From an uncultured Gammaproteobacteria bacterium (GTDB lineage: Bacteria; Patescibacteriota; Patescibacteriia; Patescibacteriales; GWC2-42-12): 62,590 nt of DNA. The stretch spans positions 1-62,590 of the forward strand of contig CAZHZE010000004.1 of assembly GCA_964537265.1 (NCBI GenBank). Direction: 5' to 3'. The position numbers and the translations under genes are program-made. Positions 12,742-46,106 of this stretch are shown in pieces. Under the pieces are notes generated by a model that was not told the DNA's origin, did no database searches, and saw nothing but the letters and a program-made list of their open reading frames with translations. The stretch's first letter is position 1. Each line of letters starts with the position of its first letter.

Positions 12742-14152
12742 AATTTTTTTCTAAATTTATCATACTTATCATAGCAACGAACAACCAAAACATAATGGAT
12801 AAATCATTTTTAAAATATGGCACATCAACAATGCCGTGAATTACTATTGCGACCATAGCGCAAATTAGACCGATATTTATATATTTATAATTAACAATTA
12901 GCTGCCGGCAATTTTTAAACCCAATATAAAAATATTTTAAAATTATCCAGATAAAAAGCAATAAACCGGCTAAACCTAATTCGCTCCAAAAATTTAAAAT
13001 TATATTATGGGGGTATAAATATATTTCTAAAGGCTGCCACATTTTTTTTCTATATTCCGCGCTATTGCGTAAATTTTTTAGCCAATCTGGGTCATCATTT
13101 TTTATAAAAAATCCTTCGGCATGATAAGGCGCAACCGCGGTTTTAAAATTAGCCAAACCAGCGCCAGTTATTAAACGATTATCTTTTAGCATTCCCCAGC
13201 TCTCTTCCCAACCTACCATTCTTATCTGGCCGGAAAAAGTTTTAAAAGTTATTGTATCATAAACTAATTTTTTAGACGGTTGATAAGTTACTATGCCAAC
13301 ACCAATTAATATGCAAAAAATAATCGTTACCCATCTTATTTTTTTATTAACTAATAAACCGAAAACCACTAAGCCAACCGCTAAACCTAATAAAGCGCCT
13401 TTTGATTTAGCAAAATAAATTGATAAAACGGACGTTACAATAACTAAAACGATAAATATTTTTTTAAAAGTTTTGGCATTAAAAATTGTTTGAAAATTAG
13501 AAATTGAAAATTGAAAATTTTTTATTGAACCGACTAACCATCCTGTTAAAACTAAAACAATCGGCCCTAAATATAATCCGACCGCGTTAGGATAACCAAA
13601 AAAAGAAACTACTCGCCGCGTTTCCGGCGCCGCCCAAATTGGATTATAAATCAATTGGCCGGTTATTTTTTGATAAATCGCTAAAAATGAAACGGCTAAA
13701 GCGCTTAAAGCCAATGACCATAAAATTTTCTCGCGGCCTTTATCCCCCTTCATAACATTAACTACCACTATAAAAAACATAACTGATTCAAAAAAATAAG
13801 CTTTAAAAATTCCCAACGAGCTTGAGCTAAAACTAGAAACGCCAACAGCAACAAAAGCCACTAATAACAAAAAAATAAGTTCCCAATCAAACGGATAACG
13901 AATTTTAACTTTTTTGTTTTCTTTTTTAAAATTTTCTAAAAAATTATTTTTAATCAGGCTAAAATTTTTAATTAACCAAACTAAAAATACAATCCAAATC
14001 ATTATTTCTAATAAAGTTGCTGGCACCCCAAAAATATTAAATCTAATCAGATAAGACGGTAAAGCTGCAATTAAAAACATAACCGCCCAATCCAAGCGAC
14101 GCCAGGAAAAAATAAAAAATAAAATAGTAAAAATTAAAATTAAATAAATCAT
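12722..14152 (-). CDS. O-antigen ligase (Wzy_C/WaaL) family membrane protein
   Basis: Multi-TM; R..SFFGYPNAVG, SKGA, R...W, YPHNIIL..WSELG..G. Confidence 0.85.
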   Translation of the reverse strand: MIYLILIFTILFFIFSWRRLDWAVMFLIAALPSYLIRFNIFGVPATLLEIMIWIVFLVWLIKNFSLIKNNFLENFKKENKKVKIRYPFDWELIFLLLVAFVAVGVSSFSSSSLGIFKAYFFESVMFFIVVVNVMKGDKGREKILWSLALSALAVSFLAIYQKITGQLIYNPIWAAPETRRVVSFFGYPNAVGLYLGPIVLVLTGWLVGSIKNFQFSISNFQTIFNAKTFKKIFIVLVIVTSVLSIYFAKSKGALLGLAVGLVVFGLLVNKKIRWVTIIFCILIGVGIVTYQPSKKLVYDTITFKTFSGQIRMVGWEESWGMLKDNRLITGAGLANFKTAVAPYHAEGFFIKNDDPDWLKNLRNSAEYRKKMWQPLEIYLYPHNIILNFWSELGLAGLLLFIWIILKYFYIGFKNCRQLIVNYKYINIGLICAMVAIVIHGIVDVPYFKNDLSIMFWLFVAMISMINLEKNYGENNI

Positions 14153-14161
14153 CTTTTTAAT

Positions 14162-15127
14162 TTACACAATAAACAAATATAACCCCAAGCAAACCATAAT
14201 CGTGCCAATTAATTTTTGTAATAATACTCCGCCGCCCAGCTGTTCATTTAGCATTTTAGGAAATTTAGTTGAGATTAATAAAATTATGACAAATAAAAAT
14301 AAATATTGCACACCTTGTAAAGCGTTAACAATAGCTACGTTACCGATGCTAATAGCATAGTTAATCATAATAAAAGCGCCGGCGGCTAAAAGCCTGATGC
14401 TTAAAAAATAAAACATATTTTTCGGAGTGGCTGAACCTTTTTGCTGTTCAAAAATTAAACGCCGCCAGTCAGGCACAAATAGCATCAATATTACACCAAT
14501 GAACGAACCTAGACGCGACCAAACAAAGCTGCCAACAAAAGGCTGATACATATAAATAAATTTCATTAAAACATAATAAACGGCGAAAAAAACCGCAGAG
14601 GCTATCGAATTAACCAACAAGCGGCTAGTCGGCTGAGCGCCGGCCGGCACATTACCAACAATGTCGCCAATAACCTCTCTTATTCTGGCTATAAGTTTTT
14701 GATAAACATAAACTTTTGTATGTTTAATAGAAATTAAAACGCCGCCGCACAATAAAATAAAAAAAGCCAGCATTTGTTGGCGAGTTAAAGTTTCGCCTAA
14801 AAAAACAAAAGATAAAATAAAACTAAAAATAGGCACAAGCGCGCCCACGATCGGCACTACGCGCGAAGCCTCGCTTTGATGTAAAGCTTTATACCAAAAA
14901 ACTAAGGTAATTAAAAATAAAAAACCGGCCAATAAATCCAAAGTCATCTCCCGCATATTTGGCATCCAGGGCCAGAAAAATAATAAAGAAATATTAAAAA
15001 TACTCCAAATGCCAACATAAAAAGCATAAGCGATTGAAGAGTGAATTTTTTTAGATAATAAAAACTTGTCGGCGACATAAACGCCGGCATTTATGAAGTA
15101 AGCCACGATAGAAACCAAAATATACAT
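14162..15127 (-). CDS. EamA/DMT-family transporter
   Basis: About 10 TM helices in two repeats; ASRVVPI..LVPIFSFILS..FLGE. Confidence 0.75.
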   Translation of the reverse strand: MYILVSIVAYFINAGVYVADKFLLSKKIHSSIAYAFYVGIWSIFNISLLFFWPWMPNMREMTLDLLAGFLFLITLVFWYKALHQSEASRVVPIVGALVPIFSFILSFVFLGETLTRQQMLAFFILLCGGVLISIKHTKVYVYQKLIARIREVIGDIVGNVPAGAQPTSRLLVNSIASAVFFAVYYVLMKFIYMYQPFVGSFVWSRLGSFIGVILMLFVPDWRRLIFEQQKGSATPKNMFYFLSIRLLAAGAFIMINYAISIGNVAIVNALQGVQYLFLFVIILLISTKFPKMLNEQLGGGVLLQKLIGTIMVCLGLYLFIV

Positions 15128-15289
15128 AATATCTTATTTTCTAATAATATTTTAACATCTTTTGCCCATTCTTGCGAGCCGGCTTTATAAGAACAAATTT
15201 AATAATTTTTACCCTTGATTTTTTATGTTTTTTGTTGTAACATCATTTTAAAGATAAATGCAAATTAAAAACTTATAAGGGGGTATAGT

Positions 15290-15817
15290 ATGGCAAAAAA
15301 AATAGCGGTTTACGAGGTTATAAAAAAATTAGCGGGTGCGGCAGGATTTAATTTATTACCGCCGACAGGAGATTATATCAATCTTTTTTCCATAAAAAGA
15401 TTGGATTTAGACAATAAACTTCTATCTTTTTTACGACAACAGGGGTATAAAAAACAAATTCTGAACATCGATGGCAAACCCGTCATCTTCCTGGCGGACG
15501 TAAAACTAAATGACCAATCAGAGCTGATAAAAAAACATGGGTGGGGTTTATGCCAAGCTCAAAAGAAGCCCTTCATAAACATGGGCGTTCATTTTAATAT
15601 CAACAGCGGCGCCAGCATAGTCACAACTTTTCCTCGGGTTCATACTATGCATAGTATGCCCGACTTCGACAAGGCGCATCAAATCTTATTTAGCGCGTTA
15701 GCAGACTACGCCCCGGACGCGCTGGCCGAGCAAACAAAAAATTTATTTCAAAGATACGGATATTTTTCTATGTCTTTTGAAGAACTCGGCATTAAAGGGT
15801 CGGTAATAATACCTTAA
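15290..15817 (+). CDS. hypothetical protein (stand-alone SD-led cassette)
   Basis: 175 aa; AAGGGGG SD, TTGATT-17-TAACAT promoter, downstream hairpin. Confidence 0.7.
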   Translation: MAKKIAVYEVIKKLAGAAGFNLLPPTGDYINLFSIKRLDLDNKLLSFLRQQGYKKQILNIDGKPVIFLADVKLNDQSELIKKHGWGLCQAQKKPFINMGVHFNINSGASIVTTFPRVHTMHSMPDFDKAHQILFSALADYAPDALAEQTKNLFQRYGYFSMSFEELGIKGSVIIP

Positions 15818-15900
15818 AATTTTCAAATTACCACAGGCCAATTCATTTTTATGAATTGGCCATTTTTTATAAAAAAACCCATTCAGAATATGAACGGGCG

Positions 15901-16248
15901 CTACTTTTTATAGCTATATTGATGCTTATAAAACCCCTCCGGCGGAGGTATTACTTCTCTTGCGAAGGCCGACTTTGCACCGCAACCTATACGTTTAACA
16001 TACACTTCGGGCAATGGATATTTTTCACATATTCCTATACGCGTCTTATTCGCACCCGGAATTCCGCACCTTAAATCTAAACAAGGCGAAGAGTTTACAG
16101 CAAAAACTTTTTTAAGATGCACAAACATTTTTTGACAGTCTTTCGCGCAACCTTTAAATGCAAATTTATCTACCTTCCAACAGTTTGCACATGGCGAGGC
16201 ATCTTTATTAATAACCCTTGAACTTATCTCGGCTTTAGGTTTTTTCAC
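15901..16248 (-). CDS. Cys-rich hypothetical protein (GTG start, SD-led)
   Basis: AAGGAGG 8 nt before GTG; 8 Cys including CANC and CAKDC; own terminator at ~15871-15900. Confidence 0.6.
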   Translation of the reverse strand: MKKPKAEISSRVINKDASPCANCWKVDKFAFKGCAKDCQKMFVHLKKVFAVNSSPCLDLRCGIPGANKTRIGICEKYPLPEVYVKRIGCGAKSAFAREVIPPPEGFYKHQYSYKK

Positions 16249-16286
16249 TCCTTATTCCTCCTTTTTTATATTTAATTTTTTTATTT

Positions 16287-17390
16287 TTATAAATCTAACA
16301 ATACGGCCGCAATCCAGGGAAAAGCTACGGTAACGTCGCTTTGAATTATTTGGTAATAGCTATTAGTAGATAATTTATCCCAAGTTATTTTTTCTTTACC
16401 GCCAGCGCCGGAATATGAACCGTAAGACATTGGCGATGAACCAATTTCAACAAAACCGGCCCAATCTCTAATTTTGTTATGGAATCTTAAATCATGTTTT
16501 AGCGAAGGCACGACGCAAATCGGAAAATCAGCCGAGATGCCGCCGCCTAATTGCAAAAAGGCAATCGGCGCGTTTTTAGATTCTTTCATATACCAATCAT
16601 ACATAAAATGAAAATATTCTAAACCGGTTTTCATAACTTTAGCATCAATGACCATATCGCCTTTTTTCTTATGAGCGCCTTTATAAGTATAACTGGAAAA
16701 AATATTTCCCATAGTAGAATCTTCAAAGCCAGGAATAACAATCGGAATATTTTTTTTATAAGCCGCGTAAGTCCAGCAGTCGGCCGGATTAGATTGCTTG
16801 TCTGGTGAAATTAAATTTTTAGAAAATAATCGGCGAAAATATTCATGCGGAAAATAACTTTCGCCTTTTTTCTCAGCGTCTTTCCACATTTTTACCAAAT
16901 GCGGCTCCATAATACGCACACTCTCATCTTCCGGCAAAAAGGTATCGGTAATGCGGCGCAACCCGGCATCGCGTAATTCAGCTTCCTGCTCCGGAGTTAA
17001 CTCGGTATAGCGCGGAATATAAGCATAATGCGAATGCGCAACATAGCGGTAATATGATTCTTCATGATTAGCACCAGTAGCAGAAATCAAATGCACTTTA
17101 TTTTTTCTAATTAATTCAGCGAGCATCACTCCGACCTGAAAAGAGCTTAAAGCTCCGGCTAAGGTAACTACTAATTTACCGCCGTGTTTTAAATGATTTT
17201 TTAACCATAAAGCCGCCTGCTCGGTTGAGCCGCCATTACAATGGTTTAAAGTCGCGGACGCGAAAGCTGAAACCGGAGCTTTGGATTTTTTTACATAAGC
17301 GCTTAATTCGCCCATTTTAGATTTATTGCCTTCGGGTATAATTAATTTTTTTAATCCAGGGGAGAGTTTATTAATAGTAGTTTTTTTCAT
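16287..17390 (-). CDS. deoxyhypusine synthase-like protein
   Basis: TLAGALS, LISATGANHEE, PGFEDS.MG, QLGGGI..DFPICVVP, YGSYSGA..EKITWDK with conserved active-site Lys. Confidence 0.85.
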   Translation of the reverse strand: MKKTTINKLSPGLKKLIIPEGNKSKMGELSAYVKKSKAPVSAFASATLNHCNGGSTEQAALWLKNHLKHGGKLVVTLAGALSSFQVGVMLAELIRKNKVHLISATGANHEESYYRYVAHSHYAYIPRYTELTPEQEAELRDAGLRRITDTFLPEDESVRIMEPHLVKMWKDAEKKGESYFPHEYFRRLFSKNLISPDKQSNPADCWTYAAYKKNIPIVIPGFEDSTMGNIFSSYTYKGAHKKKGDMVIDAKVMKTGLEYFHFMYDWYMKESKNAPIAFLQLGGGISADFPICVVPSLKHDLRFHNKIRDWAGFVEIGSSPMSYGSYSGAGGKEKITWDKLSTNSYYQIIQSDVTVAFPWIAAVLLDL

Positions 17391-17394
17391 ATTA

Positions 17395-18246
17395 TTATTT
17401 TATAAATTTATAACTTAACAACTTATAAACTAATTTAGCGACCAAAAAATCCGATGATTTTTCATTTTTATTTGGCGCTAATTCAACAACATCAAAACCT
17501 ACAACATTTTTTTTCTTAATTACCTTTTTTAAAAAATCTAAAACCTGATACCAACCTAACCCGCCTGGCTCAGGCGTGCCGGTCGAAGGTAAAATCGATG
17601 GGTCAAAAACGTCTAAATCAATAGTAATATAAACTTGATCGGTTAACTTAGAAATGGCTTTATCCATCCAATCGGTTTTATTGTAAATATTTTCGGCAAA
17701 AAATACTCGGTCTTTTTTTATAAATGGCTTTTCAATAATATCCATGCTTCTTATACCAACCTGCACAATCGGGCATAATTCGCGGACGCGCGACATCACG
17801 CAGGCATGATTATATTTTGAACCATGGTACTCGGGACGTAAATCAGAATGCGCGTCTAATTGCAAAACTGATAAATTTTTAAATTTTTTAGCATAAGCAT
17901 TAATAACGCCGGCGGACACCGAATGTTCGCCGCCTAACGTCACGACAAATTTTCCCTTTTTTAAAAATTCAGCAGCGGCAGTTTCAACTTTTTTAACCAT
18001 TTTTTCCGGCGCGCCTTTTTCCGTTACCGGCTTGGCTGTAAAAATATTTTTTTTATAAACTTCCGAAGCGGTTTCAATATCATATAATTCCATATTGGCC
18101 GAAGCTTCCAGTATTGCTCCCGGGCCCTTGTCCGCGCCTTTACCCCAGGTCGAAGTACCATCATAAGGCACGGGCAAAATAACCGCCTTGGCGGTTTTTA
18201 AAGTTGAATATTGTTTCGGCAAGTCACAAAAATTTGTTTTATACAT
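17395..18246 (-). CDS. speB: agmatinase (ureohydrolase family)
   Basis: PYDGTSTWGKG, GGEHSVS, DAHSDLR, DLDVFDPS..TGTPEPGG. Confidence 0.9.
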   Translation of the reverse strand: MYKTNFCDLPKQYSTLKTAKAVILPVPYDGTSTWGKGADKGPGAILEASANMELYDIETASEVYKKNIFTAKPVTEKGAPEKMVKKVETAAAEFLKKGKFVVTLGGEHSVSAGVINAYAKKFKNLSVLQLDAHSDLRPEYHGSKYNHACVMSRVRELCPIVQVGIRSMDIIEKPFIKKDRVFFAENIYNKTDWMDKAISKLTDQVYITIDLDVFDPSILPSTGTPEPGGLGWYQVLDFLKKVIKKKNVVGFDVVELAPNKNEKSSDFLVAKLVYKLLSYKFIK

Positions 18247-22241: not shown

Positions 22242-23195
22242 ATGAATAATTCCCTTTTTACTAAAGCCTACAACTTAATTACACAAGCTAATAATATACT
22301 GGTCGTTACCCATGAACAGCCAGACGGCGACGCTTTAGCTTCAGTATGCTTAATGGCCGAGGTTCTAAAGCTGGCAGAAAAAAAATATAAACTCTATTGT
22401 CATAATCAAGTCAACCATCAATACGCTTTTTTACCACATTTAGACGAATTAAAAAACTCTTATGAAAAATTTGATTTTGATTTAATTGTTGCTCTAGACT
22501 GCGGCAGTATTGCGCGCACGAAATTAGAAAAAGAAATTTTAAAACGCAATAAAAATCAATTAGTAATCGAAATTGATCATCATCCAAAAATAAAAGATTA
22601 TGCCGATCTGGAAATACGCGATTCGGCCGCGGCCGCCACTACGGAAATATTATATTATTTTCTTAAAGCCAATAAAATAAAAATCAATAAAGATTTAGCT
22701 AGTTGTATTTTAACCGGTATTTTAACCGACACGGGTAATTTTCTTTATCCTTCAACCTCTCCGGAAACGGTTAACATCGCTTCTGAAATGTTAATTAGAG
22801 GAGCAAAACTTCCGCAAATTATGGAAAATACCTGGCGCAATAAATCAATCGCTTCTATGAAAACTTGGGGCAAAGCCATGTCCGAATTAAAAATAAATAA
22901 AAAATATAATTTTGGTTTTACGGTTTTAAAAAGCGAGGATGTACCGGCCGAAGTAACCGAAGAAGAACTAGAGGGCATGTCTGGATTTTTAAGTAACTTA
23001 AGTTCGGTTAACGGAGTAATGCTACTTCGCCAAATGCCTGATGGAAAAATAAAAGGCAGTTTGCGCACCTCCAATCCTAAAGTTGATGTTTCTAAATTAG
23101 CGCGAATTTTAGGCGGCGGCGGACATGCTAAAGCCGCCGGCTTCTCGGTTGAAGGAAAATTAGAAAAAACAAAAGAAGGGTGGAAAATTGTTTAA
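22242..23195 (+). CDS. nrnA: DHH/DHHA1 phosphoesterase (NrnA-like)
   Basis: THEQPDGDA, LDC, IDHH, TDTGNF, GGGGHAKAAG. Confidence 0.88.
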   Translation: MNNSLFTKAYNLITQANNILVVTHEQPDGDALASVCLMAEVLKLAEKKYKLYCHNQVNHQYAFLPHLDELKNSYEKFDFDLIVALDCGSIARTKLEKEILKRNKNQLVIEIDHHPKIKDYADLEIRDSAAAATTEILYYFLKANKIKINKDLASCILTGILTDTGNFLYPSTSPETVNIASEMLIRGAKLPQIMENTWRNKSIASMKTWGKAMSELKINKKYNFGFTVLKSEDVPAEVTEEELEGMSGFLSNLSSVNGVMLLRQMPDGKIKGSLRTSNPKVDVSKLARILGGGGHAKAAGFSVEGKLEKTKEGWKIV

Positions 23196-23387
23196 AAATT
23201 TCTAACTTTCAATTTCTAATTTCTAAACAATGAATTAATATTTTAATGTAATAATTAATTAAAAATTAAATCATTGGAAATTGTTTGAAAATTGAAAATT
23301 GAAAATTAATAACATTGACTTTAAAATAAATTAGAACTATTATTAATTATATTTTATTTTTTATATTTAATTCTTAATTGAAATTAT

Positions 23388-24614: not shown

Positions 24615-26132
24615 ATGTATTACGCAATTATTGGAATTCTAGCTTTAATCGGTGGTTTTTTTGTTGGCTATTTAGTAAGAAAAAGCCGCGCCCTGGCTCA
24701 GGTATCAAGCGCTGAGGCTCGTGCGGAAAAAATCTTAGCTGAAACAAAAGCCAAACAAAAAGAACTTCTTCTTGAAGCTCAAGACAAAGCTTTAAAAATC
24801 ATTGAGGAATCTAAGCATGAAGAAGAAAAACGCCGCCAGGAAATAAATAGCCTGCAATCAAGGTTGGAAAAACGCGAAACCGTGTTCTCGCAAAAATTAT
24901 TGGAATTGCAGGATAAACAGCAACTTCTCTACGACAAAGTAAACAAAGTTGAAGAAGTTAAAGAAAAAATTAAAAAAATTCATGAGGAACAGCTGGCTAA
25001 ACTGGAAAAAATCGCCAATCTTTCTAAAGAAGAGGCGAAACAAGTTTTATTTAAAAACGTTGAAAACGATATTAAAGACGACTTAGTTATTAGAATTAAT
25101 AAATTAGAAAAAGAATCTTCTGATGCTTTAGATGAAAAAGCTCGCGATCTAATGGCCAGCTCCATGCAGCGTCTAGCTTCAACTTACGCCACGGAAATTA
25201 CTACTACTACGGTTGACTTGCCCAATGACGAAATGAAAGGACGCATTATCGGTCGCGAAGGCAGAAATATAAAGGTTATTGAACAAATGACCGGCGTAGA
25301 AATTATTGTTGACGACACTCCTAACGCCATCACTATTTCTGGTTTTTCTCCGATTAGGCGCCATATCGCAAAAAAAACTTTAGACCATTTAATAAAAGAC
25401 GGGCGCATTCATCCGACTAAAATTGAAGATGCTATTAAATTAGCTAAAGAAGAATTAGCTATTGATATTAAAAAGGCCGGCGAAGAAGCTATGTACGAAG
25501 TAGGCGTTGCTGGCTTTGATCCTAAATTAGTGCAAATTGTCGGACGCTTAAAATATCGTTCTAGCTACGGACAAAACGCTTTAAAACATTCTGTTGAAGT
25601 TGCACATTTATCGGCTTTAATCGCCGAGGAATTAGGCGCGGACGTTACGCTGGCTAAAAAAGGCGGACTGCTTCATGATATCGGTAAGGCCGTAGATCAT
25701 GAAGTACAGGGAACTCATCCGGAAATCGGCGCCAATATCGGAAAGAAATTTAATTTGGCTCCGGAAATTATCGCACCAATTTTAACCCATCATGAAGATC
25801 GCCCCGACGGTTTAATTTCCGTAATTGTTAAAGTCGCCGACGCTATCTCCGCCGCTAGGCCGGGAGCACGCCGTGATACTTTTGATCAATATATACAACG
25901 ATTAGAAGAATTAGAAAAAATCGCCACTTCTTTTGAGGGCATTGAAAAAGCTTATGCTATTCAGGCCGGACGAGAAGTCAGAGTTTTTGTCACTCCGGAT
26001 AAAATTGATGATTTGGCCGCAATTAATTTAGCTAAAGATATCGCCAAAAAAATTGAGCAAGAATTAAAATATCCTGGCGAAATAAAAGTTAATGTAATTA
26101 GAGAAATGAGAGTGACCGAATACGCACGGTAA
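24615..26132 (+). CDS. rny: ribonuclease Y
   Basis: N-terminal TM, coiled coil, KH (GRIIGREGRNI), HD (LLHDIG), RPGARR. Confidence 0.97.
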   Translation: MYYAIIGILALIGGFFVGYLVRKSRALAQVSSAEARAEKILAETKAKQKELLLEAQDKALKIIEESKHEEEKRRQEINSLQSRLEKRETVFSQKLLELQDKQQLLYDKVNKVEEVKEKIKKIHEEQLAKLEKIANLSKEEAKQVLFKNVENDIKDDLVIRINKLEKESSDALDEKARDLMASSMQRLASTYATEITTTTVDLPNDEMKGRIIGREGRNIKVIEQMTGVEIIVDDTPNAITISGFSPIRRHIAKKTLDHLIKDGRIHPTKIEDAIKLAKEELAIDIKKAGEEAMYEVGVAGFDPKLVQIVGRLKYRSSYGQNALKHSVEVAHLSALIAEELGADVTLAKKGGLLHDIGKAVDHEVQGTHPEIGANIGKKFNLAPEIIAPILTHHEDRPDGLISVIVKVADAISAARPGARRDTFDQYIQRLEELEKIATSFEGIEKAYAIQAGREVRVFVTPDKIDDLAAINLAKDIAKKIEQELKYPGEIKVNVIREMRVTEYAR

Positions 26133-26233
26133 GTTTAAAGTTTAAAAGTTAAAAGTTTTAAAATAAAATGCCAATCAATTCATAATTTATTTAACTTTAT
26201 AACTTTATAACCTTCAACTTTTAACTAACATCT

Positions 26234-27034
26234 ATGCTAAACATTCTCTTCATCGGCGAAGTTAATGGCAAAATCGGACGAAAGACAGTCCAGGAAATTT
26301 TGCCTAAAATAAAAAAAGAATATAATCCCGATTTAGTTATTTTAAACGCCGACAATTTAGCTCATGGCAACGGAGTTTCTGAAAATACTATTAAAGAAAT
26401 GATTAGCGCTGGAGTTGATATTTTTACCGGCGGCGATCATTGTTTCGGTAATATCGGCGGTCTTAATGTATATGAAAGCGACTTGCCGTTGCTTCGCCCT
26501 GCCAATTATTCTAAAAATTCTCCGGGCAAGGGCTTTAAAATTGTTGAGCTTAAAAATGATAAAAAAGTTTTGGTAATAAGCTTGGTCGGGCAAGTTTTTA
26601 TGTCTATGGACCATGACAATCCTTTTCATGAAATTGATCGAATTTTATCTAATCTTGTCAATAATAATCTATCTGCTATAATAGTTGATATACATGCGGA
26701 AGCCACTTCAGAAAAAATTGCTTTAGGGCATTATTTAGACGGGCGAGTAAGCGCAATTTTAGGAACACATACGCATATTATGACGGCTGACGCGCAAATT
26801 TCTAAATCAGGCACGGCTTTAATTACTGACGTGGGTATGACGGGTTTTGCTGATGGAGTTTTGGGTGTAGAAAAAGAAGGCATTATCAAAACTTTTTTAA
26901 ATCAGATTAAAACTCCACATATTATTCCGGAAAACGGACGAGCCTGTTTTAACGCCGTAATAATGGAAATTGATTCTGAAACGAAAAAAGCTAAAAGCAT
27001 TAAACCTATTACAAAGTATATTAATATAAAATAA
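26234..27034 (+). CDS. ymdB: YmdB-like metallophosphoesterase
   Basis: LFIGEV.G, GGDH, LRPANY, VDIHAEATSEK, GTHTH, TDVGMTG; rny-adjacent. Confidence 0.9.
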   Translation: MLNILFIGEVNGKIGRKTVQEILPKIKKEYNPDLVILNADNLAHGNGVSENTIKEMISAGVDIFTGGDHCFGNIGGLNVYESDLPLLRPANYSKNSPGKGFKIVELKNDKKVLVISLVGQVFMSMDHDNPFHEIDRILSNLVNNNLSAIIVDIHAEATSEKIALGHYLDGRVSAILGTHTHIMTADAQISKSGTALITDVGMTGFADGVLGVEKEGIIKTFLNQIKTPHIIPENGRACFNAVIMEIDSETKKAKSIKPITKYINIK

Positions 27035-27772: not shown

Positions 27773-29152
27773 TTACGGGGCAACATATCTAAGAGTTGGA
27801 TATCTATAGAAAAAATCCCCACTAACAAACGCCGCATAACGATCGCCACCGCTATTATTAATAACTATCTGTAAGGTATTAATTCCCGGTACCAACTGCC
27901 AAGTAATCAGATCATTACGTCTTCCATTATTTGTATTAGAATAAACCATGGCTCCATTTAACCAACAATAAATTGCATCATCTAAAAAATATAATTTTTG
28001 AGTAATGCTAGTTGCAACAGGAGCGTATACTTTCATTTCAAAAAGAGTTGAATATTGAGCGAAATCATTAATAAAAAAATATAATTCTCCATAGCTTGAC
28101 CATACGCTTTGTGAAGATTTTGTAAATATAGATGGATCTGTTCGTTTATCATTTGTTTCATCCATCCATACAATCCATCGTGGATTATCATTAATGTCGT
28201 TAATATACGCCGTTGTCTGTAAAGTACCGTCGGGAAACATAATACCATCTACGCCTGGTGTACCGCCAATAGTTAATTTAGCCGTTGGCGTGGTTGTACC
28301 AACGCCGACGTTACCACCAGTAAATGTAGCAGCATATGATGATGCGCCGCCATTTTCAACAACCAACGCCACAGAAGAAGCCCCATTAGTATGAACCCTA
28401 AGACCTGTCGCTGATGCAGATGTTGTTATTATATTTGCTCCAGCAGTATTTCCTTGAACATCAAGTTTATAAGTAGGGTTTGCTATTCCGATGCCAACAT
28501 TACCGGAAAAATAACTTTTTGGTCCAGCACCATAAAAATCATAATTAGTACCTATACCATAAACACCATAATTACCACCATTACCATAGACACCATAAGA
28601 AGTGCCAACACCTCTAAAACCATAGGCTCCACCGGCGCCATAAACAGCAGTACCACCAGTGCCAACAATACTATAAATACCATAAGAAGAACCTAAGCTA
28701 TAAATAGCGGCTCCGGAAGTCCCCGGTCCTCCTACAGTAAGTTGAGATAAGGGGTCTTTTGTGCCAACGCCTACATTACCGTTATTTTTAATAACAAAAA
28801 TGGATTGATTAGTCGTAGTAGAAACTTTTAATAAATCATCGGAACTATTTATACTATGGATTGATAATTTATAATCCGGCGTCGTCGTTCCAATTCCAAC
28901 CTTGCCAAAAGTAACTAAACCAGTAGAAGCTAAATTATCCATGTTAATAATAAGCGGTCCGCCTTTGGTTTGAGAAAAACTGCCTTTGTTTAATGGTTCG
29001 TCGCAACCAGGATCACCGGTGTTACAGGTCACTGGATCGGCTAAAGGCGCGGTCCAGGCGGCTAGAAGAGATTGAAATGAAATAGATAGGCTTAAAGTTA
29101 AAATAACAGCTCCGATTAATAGTAAAGAGATTTTGAGATTTTTTGAAAACAT
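27773..29152 (-). CDS. exported surface protein with GNVGIGT and YGVYG beta-strand repeats
   Basis: Signal/TM N-terminus with AWTAP; four G.VG[IV]G[TI] repeats; (YGVYG)n tract; distinct C-terminal domain. Confidence 0.75.
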   Translation of the reverse strand: MFSKNLKISLLLIGAVILTLSLSISFQSLLAAWTAPLADPVTCNTGDPGCDEPLNKGSFSQTKGGPLIINMDNLASTGLVTFGKVGIGTTTPDYKLSIHSINSSDDLLKVSTTTNQSIFVIKNNGNVGVGTKDPLSQLTVGGPGTSGAAIYSLGSSYGIYSIVGTGGTAVYGAGGAYGFRGVGTSYGVYGNGGNYGVYGIGTNYDFYGAGPKSYFSGNVGIGIANPTYKLDVQGNTAGANIITTSASATGLRVHTNGASSVALVVENGGASSYAATFTGGNVGVGTTTPTAKLTIGGTPGVDGIMFPDGTLQTTAYINDINDNPRWIVWMDETNDKRTDPSIFTKSSQSVWSSYGELYFFINDFAQYSTLFEMKVYAPVATSITQKLYFLDDAIYCWLNGAMVYSNTNNGRRNDLITWQLVPGINTLQIVINNSGGDRYAAFVSGDFFYRYPTLRYVAP

Positions 29153-30485: not shown

Positions 30486-32555
30486 CTATTTTTTGCTTTT
30501 TGTTTTAGCTAAAACTAGCTTTATTTCATGCCAATCATAATTTTCGCCTAATATATCTTTAATAGGCGTTAATTTATCCTTACCAACAGTCTTTATCGCG
30601 GCCATAATTTTTTTCTGCCGCTCCGGCTTTACTAATTTATCAATATTAACGCCCAAACCTTTTTCAATTAAGAAACATAAATGGCTTACAATCGTGTCAA
30701 TCGTTAATTCGCGCGCTTCGGCAATTTTTTCCAAACTCAACCCTTTATTCCATAACTCTAAAGTTTCTAACTGCGTAAGTTTAGTAGATAGGTTTGAAGT
30801 TTTCTTTTTTTGTTTTTCATTAACTTGTACTTTTTCTACTTCACCCATATTTTTTACTAAACAATTATCGCATTTAGCGCATTTATCAGCTTCTAACTCG
30901 CCGAAATAATCTAAAATATATTTTTGGCGGCAGTCAAAATGATAAATATAATTTTCCATTAAATCCAATTTTTTATAAGCATGTTTTAATTTATATTTAA
31001 GCGCAGTAAAATCTAATTTAACTTCATCTCCCTCTACCCGTTTTAAAATTTTTATTTCCGTACCGCGAAACGGCGGGACATATTCAGCTAATTCCAATTC
31101 TTTTAATTTTTTAATTAAACGGGCTAAAGTATCTTTTTTAATTTTTAAAATTTCAGCCATTTCTTCTAAATTAGCATACATACCTTTTTCCAATTCACCG
31201 CCATATCGATTTATTAATTGTTCTAAATTATTACGCTGGCTTTTGCTTTTAAATTTTTGATTCTCAGCTTTCAACTTTTCACTTTTAACTTTTATATACG
31301 CTTGACCGACGCGATCATGCGAACGAGCAATATAACCTTCGCGCTCTAAAACTTTTAAAGCCGTGCCTACGGCCATTTCCGGAACTTTATCTGATAGTAT
31401 TTCAGCAATTTCAGAATAAGTTATTAAAATTGTATCAGTTTCATAATTTTTTAAAATTTCATACATTTCTAAAATCATTTCTGGCGGCGGGTTATCGCCT
31501 TTGATAAAAAATTCTTGTAAATAGCGATCGCGCGGGCTATAAAGTAAAAGACAAAAACTTTGTTTGCCGTCGCGGCCGGCGCGGCCGGCTTCCTGGTAAT
31601 AAGCTTCAATCGTACCGGGCATATCATAATGAATAACAAATCTGATATCCCGCTTATCAATGCCTAAACCAAAAGCATTAGTAGCGACAATAACTTTAGC
31701 TTTGCCTTTCATAAAATTTTCCTGCACCCATTTTCTATCTTCCGCTTCCATGCCGGCATGATAACTTACCGCTTCAATATTATTACCTAATAAAACCTGC
31801 AAAAGTTCGTCGGCGCGCGAACGGGTACCAACATAAATTATGCCGGTGCCGTCTGGCACGCTATTAATAGCGTCTAAAACAAATTGTGGTTTACGGGAAT
31901 CTTGAGTATTAATTACGCCGAACTGCAAGTTCGGCCGGGCAAAACCAGTGACTACCAAGCTAGGATTATTTAAAGCTAATTGTTTGATAATATCTTCTCT
32001 TACTTCTAATGTTGCCGTGGCGGTTAGGGCAACAACCGTGGGATTACCTAATATTTCAATAGCATGTTTCAATTTTATATAGCTCGGCCTAAAATCATGG
32101 CCCCATTGGCTAATACAATGCGCTTCATCAACCGCGAATAAACTTACTTTAATTTCTTTTAATGCGGTAATAAATTCGGCGCTATAAAATCTTTCTGGCG
32201 CAATATATAATAATTTGAATTTGCCGGCCTTAACCGCTTCTAATCTATTAGTAGTTTCGGAGACACTGATGGAAGAATTTATAAATGTCGCCGGAATACC
32301 AATTTTTTGTAAACCATCAACTTGATCTTTCATTAAAGCGATTAAAGGCGAAATTACTAAAGTCACTCCTTCTAAAACCAAAGCTGGCAATTGATAGCAT
32401 AAAGACTTGCCGCCGCCCGTAGGCATAATTACCACGGTTGACTGATCAGCTAAAATATTATCAATAACTTTTTCTTGGCCAGGCCGAAAAGCCTTAAAAC
32501 CATAATGAAGTTTAAGCAATTCTAAAAGTTGTTGTTTTTTATTATTTTCGGGCAT
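30486..32555 (-). CDS. recQ: RecQ-family DNA helicase with split Zn/RQC region and C-terminal HTH
   Basis: [61 protein letters not shown]. Confidence 0.92.
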
Positions 32556-36846: not shown

Positions 36847-38439
36847 TTATACCAAACTTTTTACCATGTAACTATTTTCTAATTTATAGCCTAACTTTCT
36901 GTAATAGCCGCGCACACCAACGCCAGCAATAACGGCTATTTTTTTATAGCCAATTTCCTCGGCAATTCTTTCCGCTTCCTGCATTAACATTTTTCCTAAA
37001 CCAGCATGCTGAATTTTTTTATTTTTTCCAACCGGCACTAATTCTCCGTAAACATGCAACTCACGAATCATGGCTGGCTTGCTTTTTTCTCCTAATCTTA
37101 ACCGACAAAACCCATATAAAATTTTCCCATCTTTAGATTCAGCGGAAATAAAATATTCTACACCATCAGAAGCTTTATATTTTATAACTTTCGATTTTGA
37201 ATTTTCAACTTTAATTTTTTTTTCACCTGCTTCGCGGCATCTTATGCAGCGACATTTTACTCCGCGATCTTTCATAACCTGCCGTAAATTAGTTATCATA
37301 TTGCCGGCGATAATTGACTCACCCGGAATGTCGCGGATTAACCTTATAATTCTAACATACGGCGGCACAATTTTTTTGCATCCCACAATTAAATTTTGTA
37401 AGACTTTATCTGAATATGGTTTATACTTTCCGACTCGCCACCATTTATATAATAAACTGCCGCGCGTTACTACGGTTGGATAAAATTTTAGCTGATCTGG
37501 TTGAAAACGCTCATCTGAAAATAATTTTTTAAACATGGCCAAATCTTTTTTTGCTGTAGCTCCAGGGAGGCCTGGCATAATATGGTAAGTTACTTTAAAA
37601 CCATAATTTTTTAGCATTTCGGTTGCTTCAGCAATTTCCTTAACGCCGTGTCCGCGCTTATTTAATTTTAAAATTTTATCATCAATCGCTTGCACGCCAA
37701 GTTCTACACGAGTGCAACCTAATTCGCGCATTTCTAATAATTCTTTATCATTAATATAATCTGGACGAGTTTCTAAAGTTATACCGATAATTTTATATTT
37801 TGCATTTTCATTTTTTTTCTGCTCTTTTAGTAATATTTCTTTTAATTTTTCAATTCTAAAATTAACTTTTAACTTTCGATTCTTAATTTTTAACTTTTTT
37901 TCATACTCATTAGCCGCTTTAAAACATTGTGTTATATACCAAAACTTATAATTTACTGGTAAAACTGACCATGTTCCGCCTATTACAATTAACTCAATTT
38001 TTGTTGGCTCATGGCCATTAGCTTCTAGAGCGCGCAAACGCAATTGCACTTGTTTGTAAGGATCATAATTACAGCGAATAGCGCGCATAACCGCTGGTTC
38101 ATTAGATAAATAACTTTGCGGCACGTCTTTTTCCGTCGGGCAATAAGCACATTTTCCAGGACAAGGATATGGTTTAGTTAAAACCGCTACCGGCGCAATA
38201 CCCGACATAGTGCGCACTGATCTTTTTTTTAAAATTCCTTCCAGTTCTGATCTCTTTTTTATTTTTCCACTCTCTAATCTCTTTCTATATTCTTTTAAAA
38301 TTTCCGAGTGCAATAAAATTGCCGAACCATATTTTTTGGCCAGCTTACGTTGAATTGACATTAAATCGGCGCGCGATTTAATGCTGCTATTTAATAATTC
38401 GCTTATTAATTTTATTTTATTCTGCTTTTGGTTTGACAT
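36847..38439 (-). CDS. elp3: Elp3-type radical SAM/KAT tRNA U34 carboxymethyltransferase
   Basis: RTMSGIAPVAV, CPGKCAYCP, ETRPD, RVELGVQ, HIMPGLPG, CRCIRCRE, RELHVYG, QH.GLG..LM, GVRGYYRKLGY. Confidence 0.93.
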   Translation of the reverse strand: MSNQKQNKIKLISELLNSSIKSRADLMSIQRKLAKKYGSAILLHSEILKEYRKRLESGKIKKRSELEGILKKRSVRTMSGIAPVAVLTKPYPCPGKCAYCPTEKDVPQSYLSNEPAVMRAIRCNYDPYKQVQLRLRALEANGHEPTKIELIVIGGTWSVLPVNYKFWYITQCFKAANEYEKKLKIKNRKLKVNFRIEKLKEILLKEQKKNENAKYKIIGITLETRPDYINDKELLEMRELGCTRVELGVQAIDDKILKLNKRGHGVKEIAEATEMLKNYGFKVTYHIMPGLPGATAKKDLAMFKKLFSDERFQPDQLKFYPTVVTRGSLLYKWWRVGKYKPYSDKVLQNLIVGCKKIVPPYVRIIRLIRDIPGESIIAGNMITNLRQVMKDRGVKCRCIRCREAGEKKIKVENSKSKVIKYKASDGVEYFISAESKDGKILYGFCRLRLGEKSKPAMIRELHVYGELVPVGKNKKIQHAGLGKMLMQEAERIAEEIGYKKIAVIAGVGVRGYYRKLGYKLENSYMVKSLV

Positions 38440-39009: not shown

Positions 39010-39112
39010 ACCCCGTTAAATATTAATTATGAATTTCATTTGTTAAAATGTCAAACTTCATAATAAATTTATAGGGCTAAAAAAATATGAAAAACATAAA
39101 ATTTAATGGGGT
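39010..39112. repeat. 12-bp inverted repeat pair (MITE-like)
   Basis: accccgttaaat at 39010-39021 and atttaatggggt at 39101-39112 (one mismatch). Confidence 0.4.
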
Positions 39113-40238
39113 AAAAAAAACAATATTAATCGCCTGCTTTGTAATGCTAGTTCCTTTTGCCGCTTCGGCCTATAGCGTTAAAAATGGCGATTCTGTTTAC
39201 ATTTCTAAAGACCAAACTATTGAAGGCAACCTTTACGCTGCTGGTTCAAGCTTAGTTATCGATGGCAAAATCACTGGCGATGTTATCTGCGCTGGACAAT
39301 CTATTAATATAAATGGCGACGTGGCTGGTGATGTAATTTGTGCTGGACAATCTATTAATATAAATGGCAAGATTGGTGGCAATTTACGTATTGCCGGCAA
39401 TACTATCAATTTTAATGGACAAGTAGAACGAAATGGTATTATTATAGGCGCTACGGGCATAACTTCGGCTAGTTCTACTATCGGCTGGGACTTATTAATA
39501 CTCGGCAATATTTTTGAATTAAACGGCAATGTTGGACGCGATTTATATGGCAGCGGCGGAAAAATAAATTTAGCTGGGCAAATTGGTAAAAATGTTAATC
39601 TTGATTTTGGCGTAAGTAATACTAACGATAAACCTTTGACAATAACTAACACGGCGAAAATTAATGGCCAATTAAAATATAAATCAGAAAAAGACGCGGC
39701 AATTGATTCTAACGCAGTTATAACCGGGGAAACAATTCATAATTTACCTGACGTAAAAGATAAAAAATCCAAATTAGAAAATTTGAATTGGTGGTGGGGA
39801 AAATTAATTTCCATTTTTTCCGCTTTAGTTATCGGCTTAGTTTTAATTAGTTTTTGGCGCGAACAAATTATTAGAATTACTGATTTAATGAAAGAAGAAA
39901 TGGGCGCATCGCTAGGTTGGGGAATATTGATATTACTATTAACTCCGATTATAGCTATTATTTTATTAATTACTATTATTGGCATACCATTGTCATTTAT
40001 CTCAATAGCTCTTTGGTTAATTGCAATGTATGTTAGTAAAATTTTAGTTGGCATTTTAATCGGACGCAGCTTCTTAAATAGTTATTGGATTAAACAAAAA
40101 GATTCGTTGATTTTAGCCATGATAGTCGGCATTATAATAACCTATATAATTTTGGCCATACCATTTATCGGCTGGACTTTATCGCTTTTAGCTACGCTTT
40201 GGGGTTTGGGCGGAATTGTATTGGCTTTTAAAAAATAA
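39087..40238 (+). CDS. bactofilin-like beta-helix repeat protein with C-terminal TM domain
   Basis: Signal peptide; repeated GDV.CAGQSININGxVxG rungs; four C-terminal TM helices. Confidence 0.75.
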   Translation: MKNIKFNGVKKTILIACFVMLVPFAASAYSVKNGDSVYISKDQTIEGNLYAAGSSLVIDGKITGDVICAGQSININGDVAGDVICAGQSININGKIGGNLRIAGNTINFNGQVERNGIIIGATGITSASSTIGWDLLILGNIFELNGNVGRDLYGSGGKINLAGQIGKNVNLDFGVSNTNDKPLTITNTAKINGQLKYKSEKDAAIDSNAVITGETIHNLPDVKDKKSKLENLNWWWGKLISIFSALVIGLVLISFWREQIIRITDLMKEEMGASLGWGILILLLTPIIAIILLITIIGIPLSFISIALWLIAMYVSKILVGILIGRSFLNSYWIKQKDSLILAMIVGIIITYIILAIPFIGWTLSLLATLWGLGGIVLAFKK

Positions 40239-43080: not shown

Positions 43081-43115
43081 AAGAAGCGGGGCAAATGAAT
43101 TTGCCCCGCTATTTT
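43081..43115 (-). terminator. terminator between trpB2 and trpS
   Basis: gcggggcaaa/tttgccccgc stem followed by TTCTT on minus strand. Confidence 0.6.
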
Positions 43116-44745: not shown

Positions 44746-44790
44746 AATTTTTTCCCTCCATATTTTTTTATAAAGATCATTTTAACAAAC

Positions 44791-45056
44791 AAAAAAACCT
44801 CCCATCTCTTAGGCATAGCCAAACTATGCTTAAGGGACAGAAGGTTATTCCGTGTTGCCACCCTTATTCCGAAAATAAAAAAACGCTTTCGAGCGTTTTA
44901 TTTTCGCTCATCGACTCCACCTTAATGGCGACATCGATTATCCTATGATTACGGAGGAAGCCGAGTTAACACTAACGCATTAACCACTCTTTAAGTTCAG
45001 ACCCAACCCCGATATAATTACCGGGATCTGAACGAGTTTTACGATTTTTAAGTTCT
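44791..45056 (-). promoter_or_regulatory. T-box riboswitch, probably Trp-specific, transcriptional
   Basis: T-box AAGGGTGGCAACACGG at 44864-44849; antiterminator overlapping a terminator with T7 tract; short stem at 45033-44995 with UGG in a bulge. Confidence 0.8.
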
Positions 45057-45062
45057 AAAACT

Positions 45063-45090
45063 AGTATAGCAAAAACAAAAAATTTGTCAA
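45063..45090 (-). promoter_or_regulatory. promoter of the T-box leader
   Basis: TTGACA-16-TATACT with extended TG. Confidence 0.7.
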
Positions 45091-45092
45091 AT

Positions 45093-46106
45093 TTATTTTA
45101 ACTCTAAATTACTATCAGTTTTTAATTTCTGCCATTGAGTAAATTTTTTCCTCTTAACTCTAAAATAACCAGCCGTAGCGATCATGGCTGCATTATCTGT
45201 ACAATATTTAAATTCTGGAATTATTAATTTAGCGTCATTTAATTTATTTTTTACTGCTTCTCCTAACTGGCTTCTTAATTCAATATTTGCTGCCACGCCA
45301 CCGGAGAGCATTATATTTTTACAATCATATTTTAAGGCCGCTTTAATAGTTTTAAGAACCAAAACTTCGGCTACGGCTTTTTGAAATTCGTAAGCATAAT
45401 CTGGAACTTTCTTTTTCCAATTTTTATCTTTTTGTATTTCATATAATAGCGCCGTTTTTAATCCGGAAAAAGAAAAATCAAAATCACCGGAATCACGCAT
45501 TGGCCGCGGCAATTTAATTTTTAACTTTTCACTTTTATCTTTTAACTTAGCCGCGCTAGCGGCGATTGCTGGTCCACCCGGATAACCAATATTTAAAAGT
45601 TGCGCCGCTTTATCAAAAGCTTCACCGGCTGCATCATCTCGCGTTTCCCCTAATAATTTATATTTTCCATGCCCGGTTATTAAAATTAACATAGTATGAC
45701 CGCCGGATACAGTTAAAATTAACGCGGGAAATTTCGGCTTGTTATCTATGAAATTAGCGTAGATATGCCCTTCAATATGATTAATCGCCACGGCTGGCAT
45801 TTTCCAGGTATAAGCTAAAGTTTTAGCGGTTTCCACTCCAACCAAAAGAGAAGTTACTAGCCCGGGCCCAGTTGTTACTGCAATAGCATCTATTTTTTTT
45901 ATTCCTTTAACTGCTTCATTTACCACCGGTAAAATATTTAAAACATGCTCACGCGCCGCCACCTCAGGCACCACGCCGCCATATTTTTTATGTATTTCAA
46001 TTTGTGAAGAAACTACATTTGATAAAACTTTAACTTTTTCTCCGCTACAGCTAATAACGGCTGCTGCGGTTTCATCGCATGAAGTTTCAATGCCTAATAT
46101 AATCAT
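45093..46106 (-). CDS. tsaD: tRNA N6-adenosine threonylcarbamoyltransferase
   Basis: ILGIETSCDET, HKKYGGVVPEVAAREH, NHIEGH, ETRDDAAGEAFDK, TDNAAMIA. Confidence 0.97.
   Translation of the reverse strand: MIILGIETSCDETAAAVISCSGEKVKVLSNVVSSQIEIHKKYGGVVPEVAAREHVLNILPVVNEAVKGIKKIDAIAVTTGPGLVTSLLVGVETAKTLAYTWKMPAVAINHIEGHIYANFIDNKPKFPALILTVSGGHTMLILITGHGKYKLLGETRDDAAGEAFDKAAQLLNIGYPGGPAIAASAAKLKDKSEKLKIKLPRPMRDSGDFDFSFSGLKTALLYEIQKDKNWKKKVPDYAYEFQKAVAEVLVLKTIKAALKYDCKNIMLSGGVAANIELRSQLGEAVKNKLNDAKLIIPEFKYCTDNAAMIATAGYFRVKRKKFTQWQKLKTDSNLELK

Follow-up and report, generated by a model that had tools for sequence, protein, structure and literature searches.

Ogata and colleagues are said to have described, in 2000, the Rickettsia palindromic elements (RPE), palindromic repeats lying in frame in Rickettsia, and the short tandemly repeated repetitive (STRR) sequences of cyanobacteria were reportedly described by Mazel in 1990. 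Outside phase-variable genes, repeats with a unit length not divisible by three are considered to be kept out of coding DNA. The subject of this report is a family of heptanucleotide arrays, some between genes and others in frame inside them, on contig CAZHZE010000004.1, which at its full length of 62,590 nucleotides (nt) is called the window below. Heptanucleotide simple sequence repeats (SSRs) are, according to PMC4692102, which cites Mrazek et al. 2007, over-represented in bacteria, and GGGAATC heptamer repeats, including inverted pairs, are found in Xanthomonas and Nostoc (PMC4692102). Direct repeats of TAACTGA lie upstream of start codons in Beggiatoaceae, Cyanobacteria and Bacteroidetes, where 10 sets are located in open reading frames (ORFs), in reverse orientation only (MacGregor 2015, PMC4679880), and Nostoc heptamers are likewise found upstream of start codons (bioRxiv 10.1101/2022.06.06.494920). 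Repetitive extragenic palindromic sequences and the hairpins that they form as doublets (REP/REPIN elements) are mobilised by REP-associated tyrosine transposases (RAYT; PMC3116915), and bacterial MITEs, transposable elements of the miniature inverted-repeat type (PMC10969869), are the short, hairpin-type, non-autonomous elements compared here. The literature searches brought to light no account of heptamer arrays or of repeats in frame in Patescibacteria, and none of a core-bearing hairpin shared across Patescibacteria, of in-frame copies in housekeeping enzymes or of in-register unit turnover in essential genes.

The window carries arrays with units of the form RAAARTT, both between genes, where inverted pairs can fold as AT-rich hairpins, and in frame at five sites in four genes. 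On balance, it is probable that such sequences were seeded into genes in the manner of RPEs and have since behaved as an in-frame heptanucleotide microsatellite, turning over by conversion and recombination; we infer this mechanism from the patterns described below.

The GC content of the window is about 33%, and it is rich in lysine codons. The nearest homologues of its TsaD, Wzy_C, RecQ and Elp3 proteins belong to metagenome-assembled Patescibacteria, including Parcubacteria-group bacteria and Candidatus Falkowbacteria, with up to 85-99% amino-acid identity; judged by these homologues, the contig is that of a Falkowbacteria-like member of the Patescibacteria. Its sequence occurs in wastewater and digester metagenomes (19 runs). 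The four genes, assigned by Pfam, and the five arrays inside them are:

12722-14152, minus strand: Wzy_C-family (O-antigen-ligase-like) gene
13477..13522, minus strand: in-frame single arm of the GAAAATT/AATTTTC element in Wzy, sense (AATTTTC/AATTTCT)4-AAACAATTTTTAATG, encoding KNFQFSISNFQTIFNA
30486-32555, minus strand: RecQ-family helicase gene
31243..31294, minus strand: in-frame AAAGTKA array in RecQ, encoding a 17-amino-acid peptide, in the linker joining a pair of winged-helix-like modules within an insert specific to RecQ
36847-38439, minus strand: Elp3-type radical-SAM/GNAT gene; best solved relative D. mccartyi Elp3 (PDB 5L7J, E = 2e-123)
37864..37898, minus strand: Elp3 site 1, in-frame AAAGTTA-type array, peptide EKKLKIKNRKLKV
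37179..37220, minus strand: Elp3 site 2, in-frame degenerate array, peptide KKIKVENSKSKVIK, after the CIRCRE motif
45093-46130, minus strand: TsaD gene
45513..45550, minus strand: in-frame AAAGTTA-type array in TsaD, peptide KLKDKSEKLKIK immediately before LPRP, in the loop from GGP to LPRPM

A preliminary description of this DNA had placed in-frame heptamer arrays in Wzy, recQ, elp3 (twice) and tsaD, and all five, with their peptides, are located where it put them; of its eight units in recQ, about four are clear (31264-31294) and the remainder degenerate. Tandem Repeats Finder detects a period of 7 at 13490-13519, 23285-23307, 31268-31294, 37862-37898 and 45513-45548. Nucleotides 13483-13519 in Wzy encode KNFQFSISNFQT, and this array sits between predicted membrane segments. 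Two sub-families of unit are present, GAAAATT/AGAAATT and AAAGTTA/G, linked by intermediates such as GAAAGTT in the arm at 23197-23231. Coding arrays make up five or six of the about ten in the window. Between genes, arrays are located at four sites, three of which are inverted pairs:

5704..5769, no strand assigned: rpmF/nusB hairpin, AAAGTTA-type, (AAAGTTA/AAAGTAG)n then (TAACTTT)n; 3-4 nt separate the end of the array from the nusB ATG downstream, at 5700 (minus strand)
5985..6023, minus strand: queA/rpmF degenerate array, sense NACTTTT units, directly upstream of the start (5984) of a small rpmF-like gene
23189..23314, no strand assigned: DHH-family/clpP hairpin, left arm (AATTTCT-type)n-AAACAAT at 23189-23231, loop of about 48 nt, right arm ATTGTTT-(GAAAATT)3 at 23280-23308
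26131..26226, no strand assigned: rny/ymdB hairpin, AAAGTTA-type, arms (AAGTTTA/AAAGTTA)n and (TAACTTT)n; rny stop at 26132, ymdB ATG at 26234

The hairpins in the window are about 65-125 nt long and AT-rich. That between the DHH-family gene and clpP has 29-nt arms which are 83% complementary and folds better than shuffled sequence with z = -3.4, while the other two inverted pairs reach z = -2.1 and -1.8 in the same comparison. Arrays in forward orientation lie close upstream of start codons at 5704-5745 (nusB), 5985-6023 (the rpmF-like gene) and 26190-26226 (ymdB); the arm at 23280-23308 is 80 nt upstream of clpP, so it is not start-proximal. A terminator scan located canonical GC-rich terminators elsewhere in the window. 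Upstream of clpP (23299-23343), the last unit of the right arm gives a TTGAAA hexamer resembling a -35 box, followed after 17 nt by TAAAAT, and a second, overlapping match reads TTGACT-17-TATTAT, both being consensus matches only. A promoter role for the right arm was considered on these weak matches at its last unit and set aside, since they are not evidence of function.

The preliminary description had also reported that the Wzy copy nearly matches the intergenic arm at 23278-23307. The match is stronger than it claimed, running past the array into a non-repeat tail, CAAACAATTT[TC][TC]AATG, which is common to the Wzy coding copy and both arms of the DHH/clpP element. Alone, with two mismatches allowed, the 16-nt tail is not significant in the window (2 occurrences against 1.2 expected), and its significance comes from a scan of a genome collection, with one genome per species and the 22-nt motif AATTTTCAAACAATTTYYAATG as the query. 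The scan found at least 122 copies at no fewer than 118 loci, with multiple copies in several genomes. Among the matches listed, almost all named carriers are Patescibacteria (Parcubacteria-group, Moran-, Magasanik-, Falkow-, Kuenen-, Zambryski- and Wolfebacteria, Paceibacterota); some matched records bear other taxon labels, and a few copies without an upstream array look like chance matches. The conserved element consists of (AATTTTC)3-4-AAACAATTTYYAATG, a loop, and CATTG..ATTGTTT-(RRAAATT)n, thus containing a core that is not itself repetitive. Typically an upstream stop codon is followed by (AATTTTC)3-4-AAACAATTTTCAATG, the loop, CATTG..ATTGTTT-(AGAAATT/GAAAATT)n and, after a few nucleotides, the next ATG. 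Full hairpins among the matches listed number 44, with a median length of 121 nt. With respect to the flanking genes, 45 copies lie on the same strand and 36 on the opposite one, which is no bias and gives no support for a strand-specific RNA role. The hairpins match no Rfam family, either at gathering thresholds or at E <= 10.

Between 9 and 12 of the at least 122 core copies are located inside long ORFs, all as a single arm (about 10% of the matches listed). Nine of the ten clearly internal copies among the matches listed are read in one frame, NFQFSIF-NFQTI[SF]ND, in unrelated enzymes. The hosts appear, from conserved motifs, to be GT4-type glycosyltransferase-like, MetRS-like, MiaB-like, pyruvate-kinase-like and Fpg-like proteins, and Elp3 (site 1) has been confirmed by alignment as a host in other Patescibacteria.

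The excess of period 7 does not depend on the choice of unit. In an autocorrelation analysis blind to the unit, five runs of period 7 with a score of at least 12 are present in the window, against 0.02-0.03 in Markov-1 and Markov-3 simulations, and among periods 4-11 the others give 0-1 runs in the same test. Arrays of four RAAARTT units, a unit picked after the data had been seen, number 10 against 0.1-0.26 expected. The lysine-rich coding arrays share exact strings of 12-16 nt, both among themselves and with the AAAGTTA arrays lying between genes; for control segments rich in A, the 99th percentile is 12 nt. In 1.09 Mb of Patescibacteria loci, a sample biased to the AATTTTC family in which more than 100 arrays nevertheless have other units, 203 arrays of period 7 were found, compared with 0-18 for periods 5, 6 and 8-11, and 47 of the 203 (23%) are inside long ORFs.

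At two of the five coding sites of the window, the array coincides with a gain in length. The Wzy loop is longer by 33 nt than that of a relative with 78% amino-acid identity (L270) and by 30 nt than that of another with 70% (L272), precisely at the array, so that the insert adds 10-11 residues. Among 120 Wzy orthologues the peptide NFQFSI[SF]NFQTIFN has a patchy distribution; many have short loops and others contain different repeat-derived peptides. Site 1 of Elp3 coincides with a 12-residue insertion relative to PDB entry 5L7J, with a second insertion of 7 residues nearby, in a region of very variable length among 60 Elp3 representatives. A whole inverted pair is present in frame in the TsaD loop of a relative (L393). 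Its components are (AATTTTC)n, a pair of GC-rich mini-inserts and, as the right arm, (AAAATTC/AAAATTT)n, where C or T replaces the G of GAAAATT and so removes TGA.

Mapping onto predicted structures, which the preliminary description had suggested, places the array peptides of TsaD and Elp3 in coil of lowered AlphaFold2 confidence. The models of both proteins have a mean predicted local distance difference test score (pLDDT) of about 92; the TsaD array falls in a coil (residues 187-210) with pLDDT 77, the lowest internal confidence block, and Elp3 site 1 in a coil (residues 178-195) with pLDDT 61.

The GC-rich mini-inserts are 18-30 nt long, form one or two small hairpins (for example CCGCCCAAGGCGGACCAGCCTTGGGCTGGC) and lie exactly between heptamer units, in frame, at L267:5590-5640, L269:11280-11320, L393:10540-10680, L151:4230-4272, L162:4900-4941 and L182:5120-5163. 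Peptides encoded by them include PPKADQPWAG, PALSGAEGP and PLRQGPGGQA. The mini-inserts have the appearance of another dispersed element, one that would target arrays and nest in them; a search of the window's own arrays found none inside them. Small dispersed repeats nested in other repeats were reportedly described in Nostoc by Elhai and colleagues in 2008, and the arrangement of the mini-inserts in the relatives is similar, the likeness being one of arrangement. The Wzy and TsaD loops of relatives (for example P0141, P0151, P0168 and P0139) contain yet other peptides of the palindromic-repeat type, ...EIASLPSVARND..., LRGNDK..VARND, TPSVSEGEKSLKDF, PPTPLYQGGI and KSPFKRGIKGV. Because these are typical of other palindromic repeats, the two loops would be general sinks for repeat insertions.

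The remaining three sites are different. The claim that the element colonises tolerant loops thus holds for Wzy and Elp3 site 1, where length is gained, and not for RecQ, Elp3 site 2 and TsaD: the observation that had been named in advance as speaking against it, namely gapless alignment of the peptides to orthologues without the periodicity, was made at these three of the five coding sites. The RecQ array aligns with zero gaps to 120 orthologues, without gain in length, and orthologues below about 73% identity contain a non-periodic sequence of equal length, YLKLxxDFxxxLxSLGxRAKxQ. Elp3 site 2 has the same length as in nearly all representatives and is 3 residues shorter than in 5L7J. The TsaD loop, PGGP...LPR, is made up of 26 residues, as in several non-periodic Parcubacteria orthologues, and is 4 residues longer than that of T. 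maritima TsaD (PDB entry 6N9A).

Codon-level alignments show that relatives contain arrays at these three positions with the same start codon position, phase and length as in the window, but built of other units, while more distant orthologues are non-periodic and of equal length. The units found across genomes are:

RecQ: AAAGTKA, AACTCGC, AATTACG, AATATCC, AAATGTC
Elp3 site 2: AAAGTTT/G, AATTTTC, AATTACG/AATTACA
TsaD: AAAGTTR, AAATTAC

Where relatives have a GC content of 42-46%, their arrays are perfect for 4-4.5 units, at synonymous positions too, and homogenisation is therefore recent relative to the protein divergence of about 15-20%. When the window is compared with a 99% identical RecQ, two of the five amino-acid differences fall in the 17-residue array, against about 0.12 expected. 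The array peptides of relatives are compatible with a stepwise series of units, AAAAGTT, AAAACTC, AAAACTC alternating with GCAACTC, GCAACTC and GCAACCC, in which the intermediate units were back-translated and only AACTCGC and AACCCGC were read as DNA. Periodicity of the amino-acid sequence at lag 7 is present in 24 of 120 TsaD, 17 of 121 RecQ and 10 of 120 Wzy loops, compared with 1-3% of controls. The same peptides recur in different proteins across genomes: RITNYEL in TsaD, RecQ, Wzy and Elp3; FSIFNFQ in Wzy, TsaD and Elp3; and CQMSNVK in RecQ, TsaD and Elp3.

The RecQ array alleles, together with their flanking residues, are polyphyletic on the tree of the remaining gene, which indicates apparent mosaic exchange of the array segment among lineages. 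In P0241-P0314, the stretch from the array to the next winged helix occurs as discrete alleles, mosaic over the tree, with P0245, which contains KLKTESAKLVDSASSR...GWYFNFEE, inside the clade of the window; the mosaic distribution of these alleles points to recombination among related lineages. The array is part of an insert of about 170-190 residues (approximately residues 345-520) that separates the helicase C domain of RecQ from its zinc-binding motif. Segments resembling winged helices are found in this insert (Pfam matches to HTH_36 and MarR_2 at 459-493), and an HTH_40 domain is located at the carboxy terminus of the protein.

Compared with RPEs, which are set beside these arrays by description and not by sequence, the likenesses are several: a short non-autonomous repeat, intergenic as well as in frame in many unrelated housekeeping genes, one preferred reading frame, at some sites a peptide added in what would be surface regions, and no evident transposase or target-site duplication. 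A gain of residues of the RPE type is seen in Wzy (10-11) and at Elp3 site 1 (12 and 7), with no net gain in RecQ, Elp3 site 2 and TsaD. However, the arms here are tandem heptamer arrays, where an RPE is a unique palindrome of 100-150 bp; in the window, coding copies consist of one arm or a bare array, 30-50 nt long and lacking the opposite arm, a whole in-frame pair having been seen in L393 alone; several coding arrays add no length, their units turning over in register; and the host is a member of the Patescibacteria, not of the Rickettsiales. The analogy with RPEs drawn in the preliminary description, with a different sequence logic, is thus apt for how the element works and does not extend to membership of the family, the window's coding copies being single arms and not palindromes.

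The arrays also share much with heptanucleotide SSRs and STRRs. They consist of at least three 7-nt units head to tail (Tandem Repeats Finder and autocorrelation), and period 7 is strongly over-represented relative to other periods and to random sequence of matched composition; they are mostly intergenic, sometimes form inverted pairs, and have units that vary by lineage at conserved positions. SSRs and STRRs are described as essentially intergenic, whereas here 23% of the arrays sampled in related loci (47 of 203), and five or six of about ten in the window, are coding, in ORFs of conserved enzymes. Moreover, one family here has a non-repeat core common to many Patescibacteria lineages. As with the TAACTGA repeats, arrays stop a few nucleotides before start codons (in the window, TAACTTT on the sense strand precedes the ATGs at 5700, 5984 and 26234), ORF copies occur in reverse orientation only, because the units read forward include stop codons, and the distribution over phyla is unexplained. 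Unlike them, the window units are TAACTTT/NACTTTT (5 of 7 positions shared), most intergenic arrays of the window are hairpin arms, and the ORF copies are at orthologous positions of essential genes, with unit turnover.

REP/REPIN elements and MITEs are, like the hairpins described here, short, intergenic, hairpin-forming doublets that are non-autonomous and occur in several copies per genome, but the arms here are internally periodic and lack target-site duplications. No RAYT was found among the 34 annotated ORFs of the window; the only match is a weak one to Y1_Tnp by recQ in L268. The label MITE was rejected: inverted arms are present, but target-site duplications in the 44 full copies are no better than in shuffled pairings. 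DNA uptake sequences (USS/DUS) were likewise rejected, as these need about one copy of one motif per kb, compared with one hairpin and one coding arm in the 62.6 kb here, with diverse units.

In the explanation that we consider probable, that of RPE-like seeding followed by turnover as a coding microsatellite, an arm (in relatives, a whole hairpin) would first join the coding sequence in a loop that tolerates extra length, as the Wzy, Elp3 site 1 and L393 cases illustrate. Since 7 is not a multiple of 3, all three phases of the unit are read and the peptide has a period of seven residues, NFQFSIF from AATTTTC and KLKVKSE from AAAGTTR. Once inside a gene, the array would behave as a coding microsatellite held in frame and register, with units homogenised or replaced at constant net length. 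This could come about by pairing out of register followed by conversion inside the array, by ectopic templating, or by recombination of segments among arrays or lineages; the result would be that orthologous positions of RecQ, Elp3 and TsaD hold arrays of different, often perfect units, as observed.

Selection would, in a third step, act as a filter only, for a sequence free of stops in every phase, a length that is a multiple of three, and a position in a coil or linker. As 7 and 3 have no common factor, a unit can form a perfect array in a gene only when its cyclic reading lacks TAA, TAG and TGA. AATTTTC, AATTACG, AACTCGC and similar units can therefore form perfect coding arrays, the AAAGTTA arrays of the window are necessarily imperfect, and the G-to-C/T changes in the purine arm of L393 follow from the same rule. 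Such filtering is seen in that arm and in the imperfect AAAGTTA arrays, and we infer that it is general. As the peptides at one site are chemically unrelated, what is conserved is the period of the DNA and not the protein sequence, and in this best explanation the lysine-rich peptides are tolerated by-products and not designed modules.

Several observations weigh against this explanation. Flanking direct repeats at the 44 full elements are no longer than in shuffled pairings, so that no target-site duplication is seen, and no transposase was found by Pfam among the 34 annotated ORFs of the window (of 63 ORFs of at least 100 residues). At RecQ, Elp3 site 2 and TsaD the equal length fits birth of the array in situ equally well, and there is no direct evidence of insertion. 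Conversion within arrays is suggested by their patterns alone, and the polyphyly of the RecQ alleles was read from a crude neighbour-joining tree with short internal branches. The sharing of units within a genome was rejected as proof of conversion between loci and is suggestive only: cases of agreement come for the most part from near relatives of the window, where common ancestry is a confounding factor. Finally, because perfect (GAAAATT)3 and (AAAGTTA)3 arrays are present in many other phyla, arrays could arise without any element, through a general mutational bias.

Beside these points, two further observations concern possible mobilisers and one the other phyla. In L268, a 217-residue gene (9321-9974) directly upstream of recQ has a weak Y1_Tnp (IS200/RAYT-type) match and is a possible candidate for a mobiliser of the hairpin repeats; in L269, a weak RVT_1 match is located at 15890-16465. 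Metagenome-assembled genomes of Thermoanaerobaculia (63-68% GC) contain perfect intergenic AT-rich hairpins at L088:499-580, L088:1932-2010 and L102:3414-3510, made up of (GAAAATT)4, a variable GC-rich loop of 20-40 nt and (AATTTTC)4, with the order of the arms reversed with respect to the Patescibacteria element and without the AAACAAT core.

A more speculative reading, which we put forward tentatively, is that a process present in Patescibacteria, be it a dedicated activity or a strong bias of conversion or slippage towards 7 nt, rewrites linker DNA in place with a perfect array of a different unit while length, register and frame are kept. Cassettes would then be exchanged among loci and lineages, and the core hairpin, (AATTTTC)n-AAACAATTTYYAATG...ATTGTTT-(RRAAATT)n, would be a functional cis-element for a conserved factor.

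Pure colonisation in the manner of RPEs, with each coding array an independent insertion and the differing units due to repeated hits on a few tolerant sites, is rather unlikely. It accounts well for the added length in Wzy and at Elp3 site 1, for the element with the conserved tail in frame in many unrelated enzymes, for the full hairpin in the TsaD of L393 and for the other repeat-derived inserts in the TsaD and Wzy loops of relatives. It does not account for RecQ, Elp3 site 2 and TsaD, where length is not gained, and independent insertions would not be expected to give arrays of different units in register and in phase, with the same start codon, phase and length. The missing target-site duplications (44 full copies) and transposase (34 window ORFs) count against it as well.

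At those three sites the birth of microsatellites in situ, by a 7-nt slippage bias acting on A-rich proto-repeats and with no kinship to the intergenic elements, fits the in-register arrays without gain in length. A bias of replication slippage towards 7-nt units is the Mrazek hypothesis, cited in PMC4692102, and same-unit heptamer arrays in many phyla, along with an excess of period 7 that Patescibacteria loci show in general, outside the AATTTTC family too, are in line with it. As the sole process we nevertheless regard it as improbable, for a single 7-nt slippage would shift the frame of essential genes, the non-repeat tail of the Wzy copy recurs in the intergenic arms and in over 100 copies elsewhere, a small number of unit families come up again in different genes and genomes, and coding and intergenic arrays have exact strings of 12-16 nt in common.

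The 22-nt core is conserved over very divergent Patescibacteria lineages in fast-evolving intergenic DNA, and arrays abut the starts at 5700, 5984 and 26234, like the TAACTGA repeats (PMC4679880) and the Nostoc heptamers (bioRxiv 10.1101/2022.06.06.494920). These facts could suggest a functional nucleic-acid signal for a conserved Patescibacteria factor (protein-binding, RNA-processing, translation or DNA-uptake type), with coding copies kept or driven by the signal. Inverted pairs and coding copies in a fixed frame resemble uptake sequences. But the many units at one coding site, with no single sequence conserved, the low density (few copies per sampled genome; one hairpin and one coding arm in 62 kb), the unbiased orientation to flanking genes and the separate existence of canonical GC-rich terminators make this very unlikely. 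Hardly credible, finally, is selection for the peptides (lysine-rich amphipathic or 7-residue linkers, the DNA period a by-product) or chance low complexity in an AT-rich genome: lysine codons are abundant at about 33% GC and the hydrophobic pattern of Elp3 site 2 is roughly retained across alleles, but KVKSEKL, RITNYEL, TRNSQLA, CQMSNVK, YPISNIQ and FSIFNFQ at one site are chemically unrelated, with only the 7-nt DNA period constant, arrays are perfect at synonymous positions, and chance is excluded by the simulations.

The arrays show units not divisible by three persisting in frame, across a clade, in the essential enzymes TsaD, Elp3 and RecQ, and show how the need to avoid stop codons influences the choice of repeat units that genes can harbour. 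They extend the notion of selfish DNA inside proteins beyond Rickettsia and constitute a natural system in which the sequence of a loop changes totally, many codons at once, with length and fold fixed. The hairpin, present in many Patescibacteria lineages and absent from Rfam, is a concrete cis-element in bacteria whose gene regulation is almost unknown. For annotation, NFQFSIFNFQTISND, KLRITNYELRI and KTRNSQLATRN can be flagged as repeat-derived and not as functional motifs.

Other features of the window are of minor interest. Positions 1-2194 (minus strand) contain a partial 23S ribosomal RNA, truncated at the contig end, with model positions 1-1969 spread over 2194 nt; the surplus of about 225 nt may represent an insertion in the rRNA, such as has been reported from these bacteria. 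A 51-nt tandem unit (39262-39370, 2.1 copies) is located in the ORF 39087-40238, whose orthologues in relatives match Bactofilin/DUF8173, and a 27-nt unit (28529-28598, 2.6 copies) in the ORF 27773-29152, which has no Pfam match. At 16287-18246 (minus strand), a deoxyhypusine-synthase-family gene adjoins an arginase/agmatinase-family gene, and their pairing with the Wzy and EamA genes is kept in relatives.

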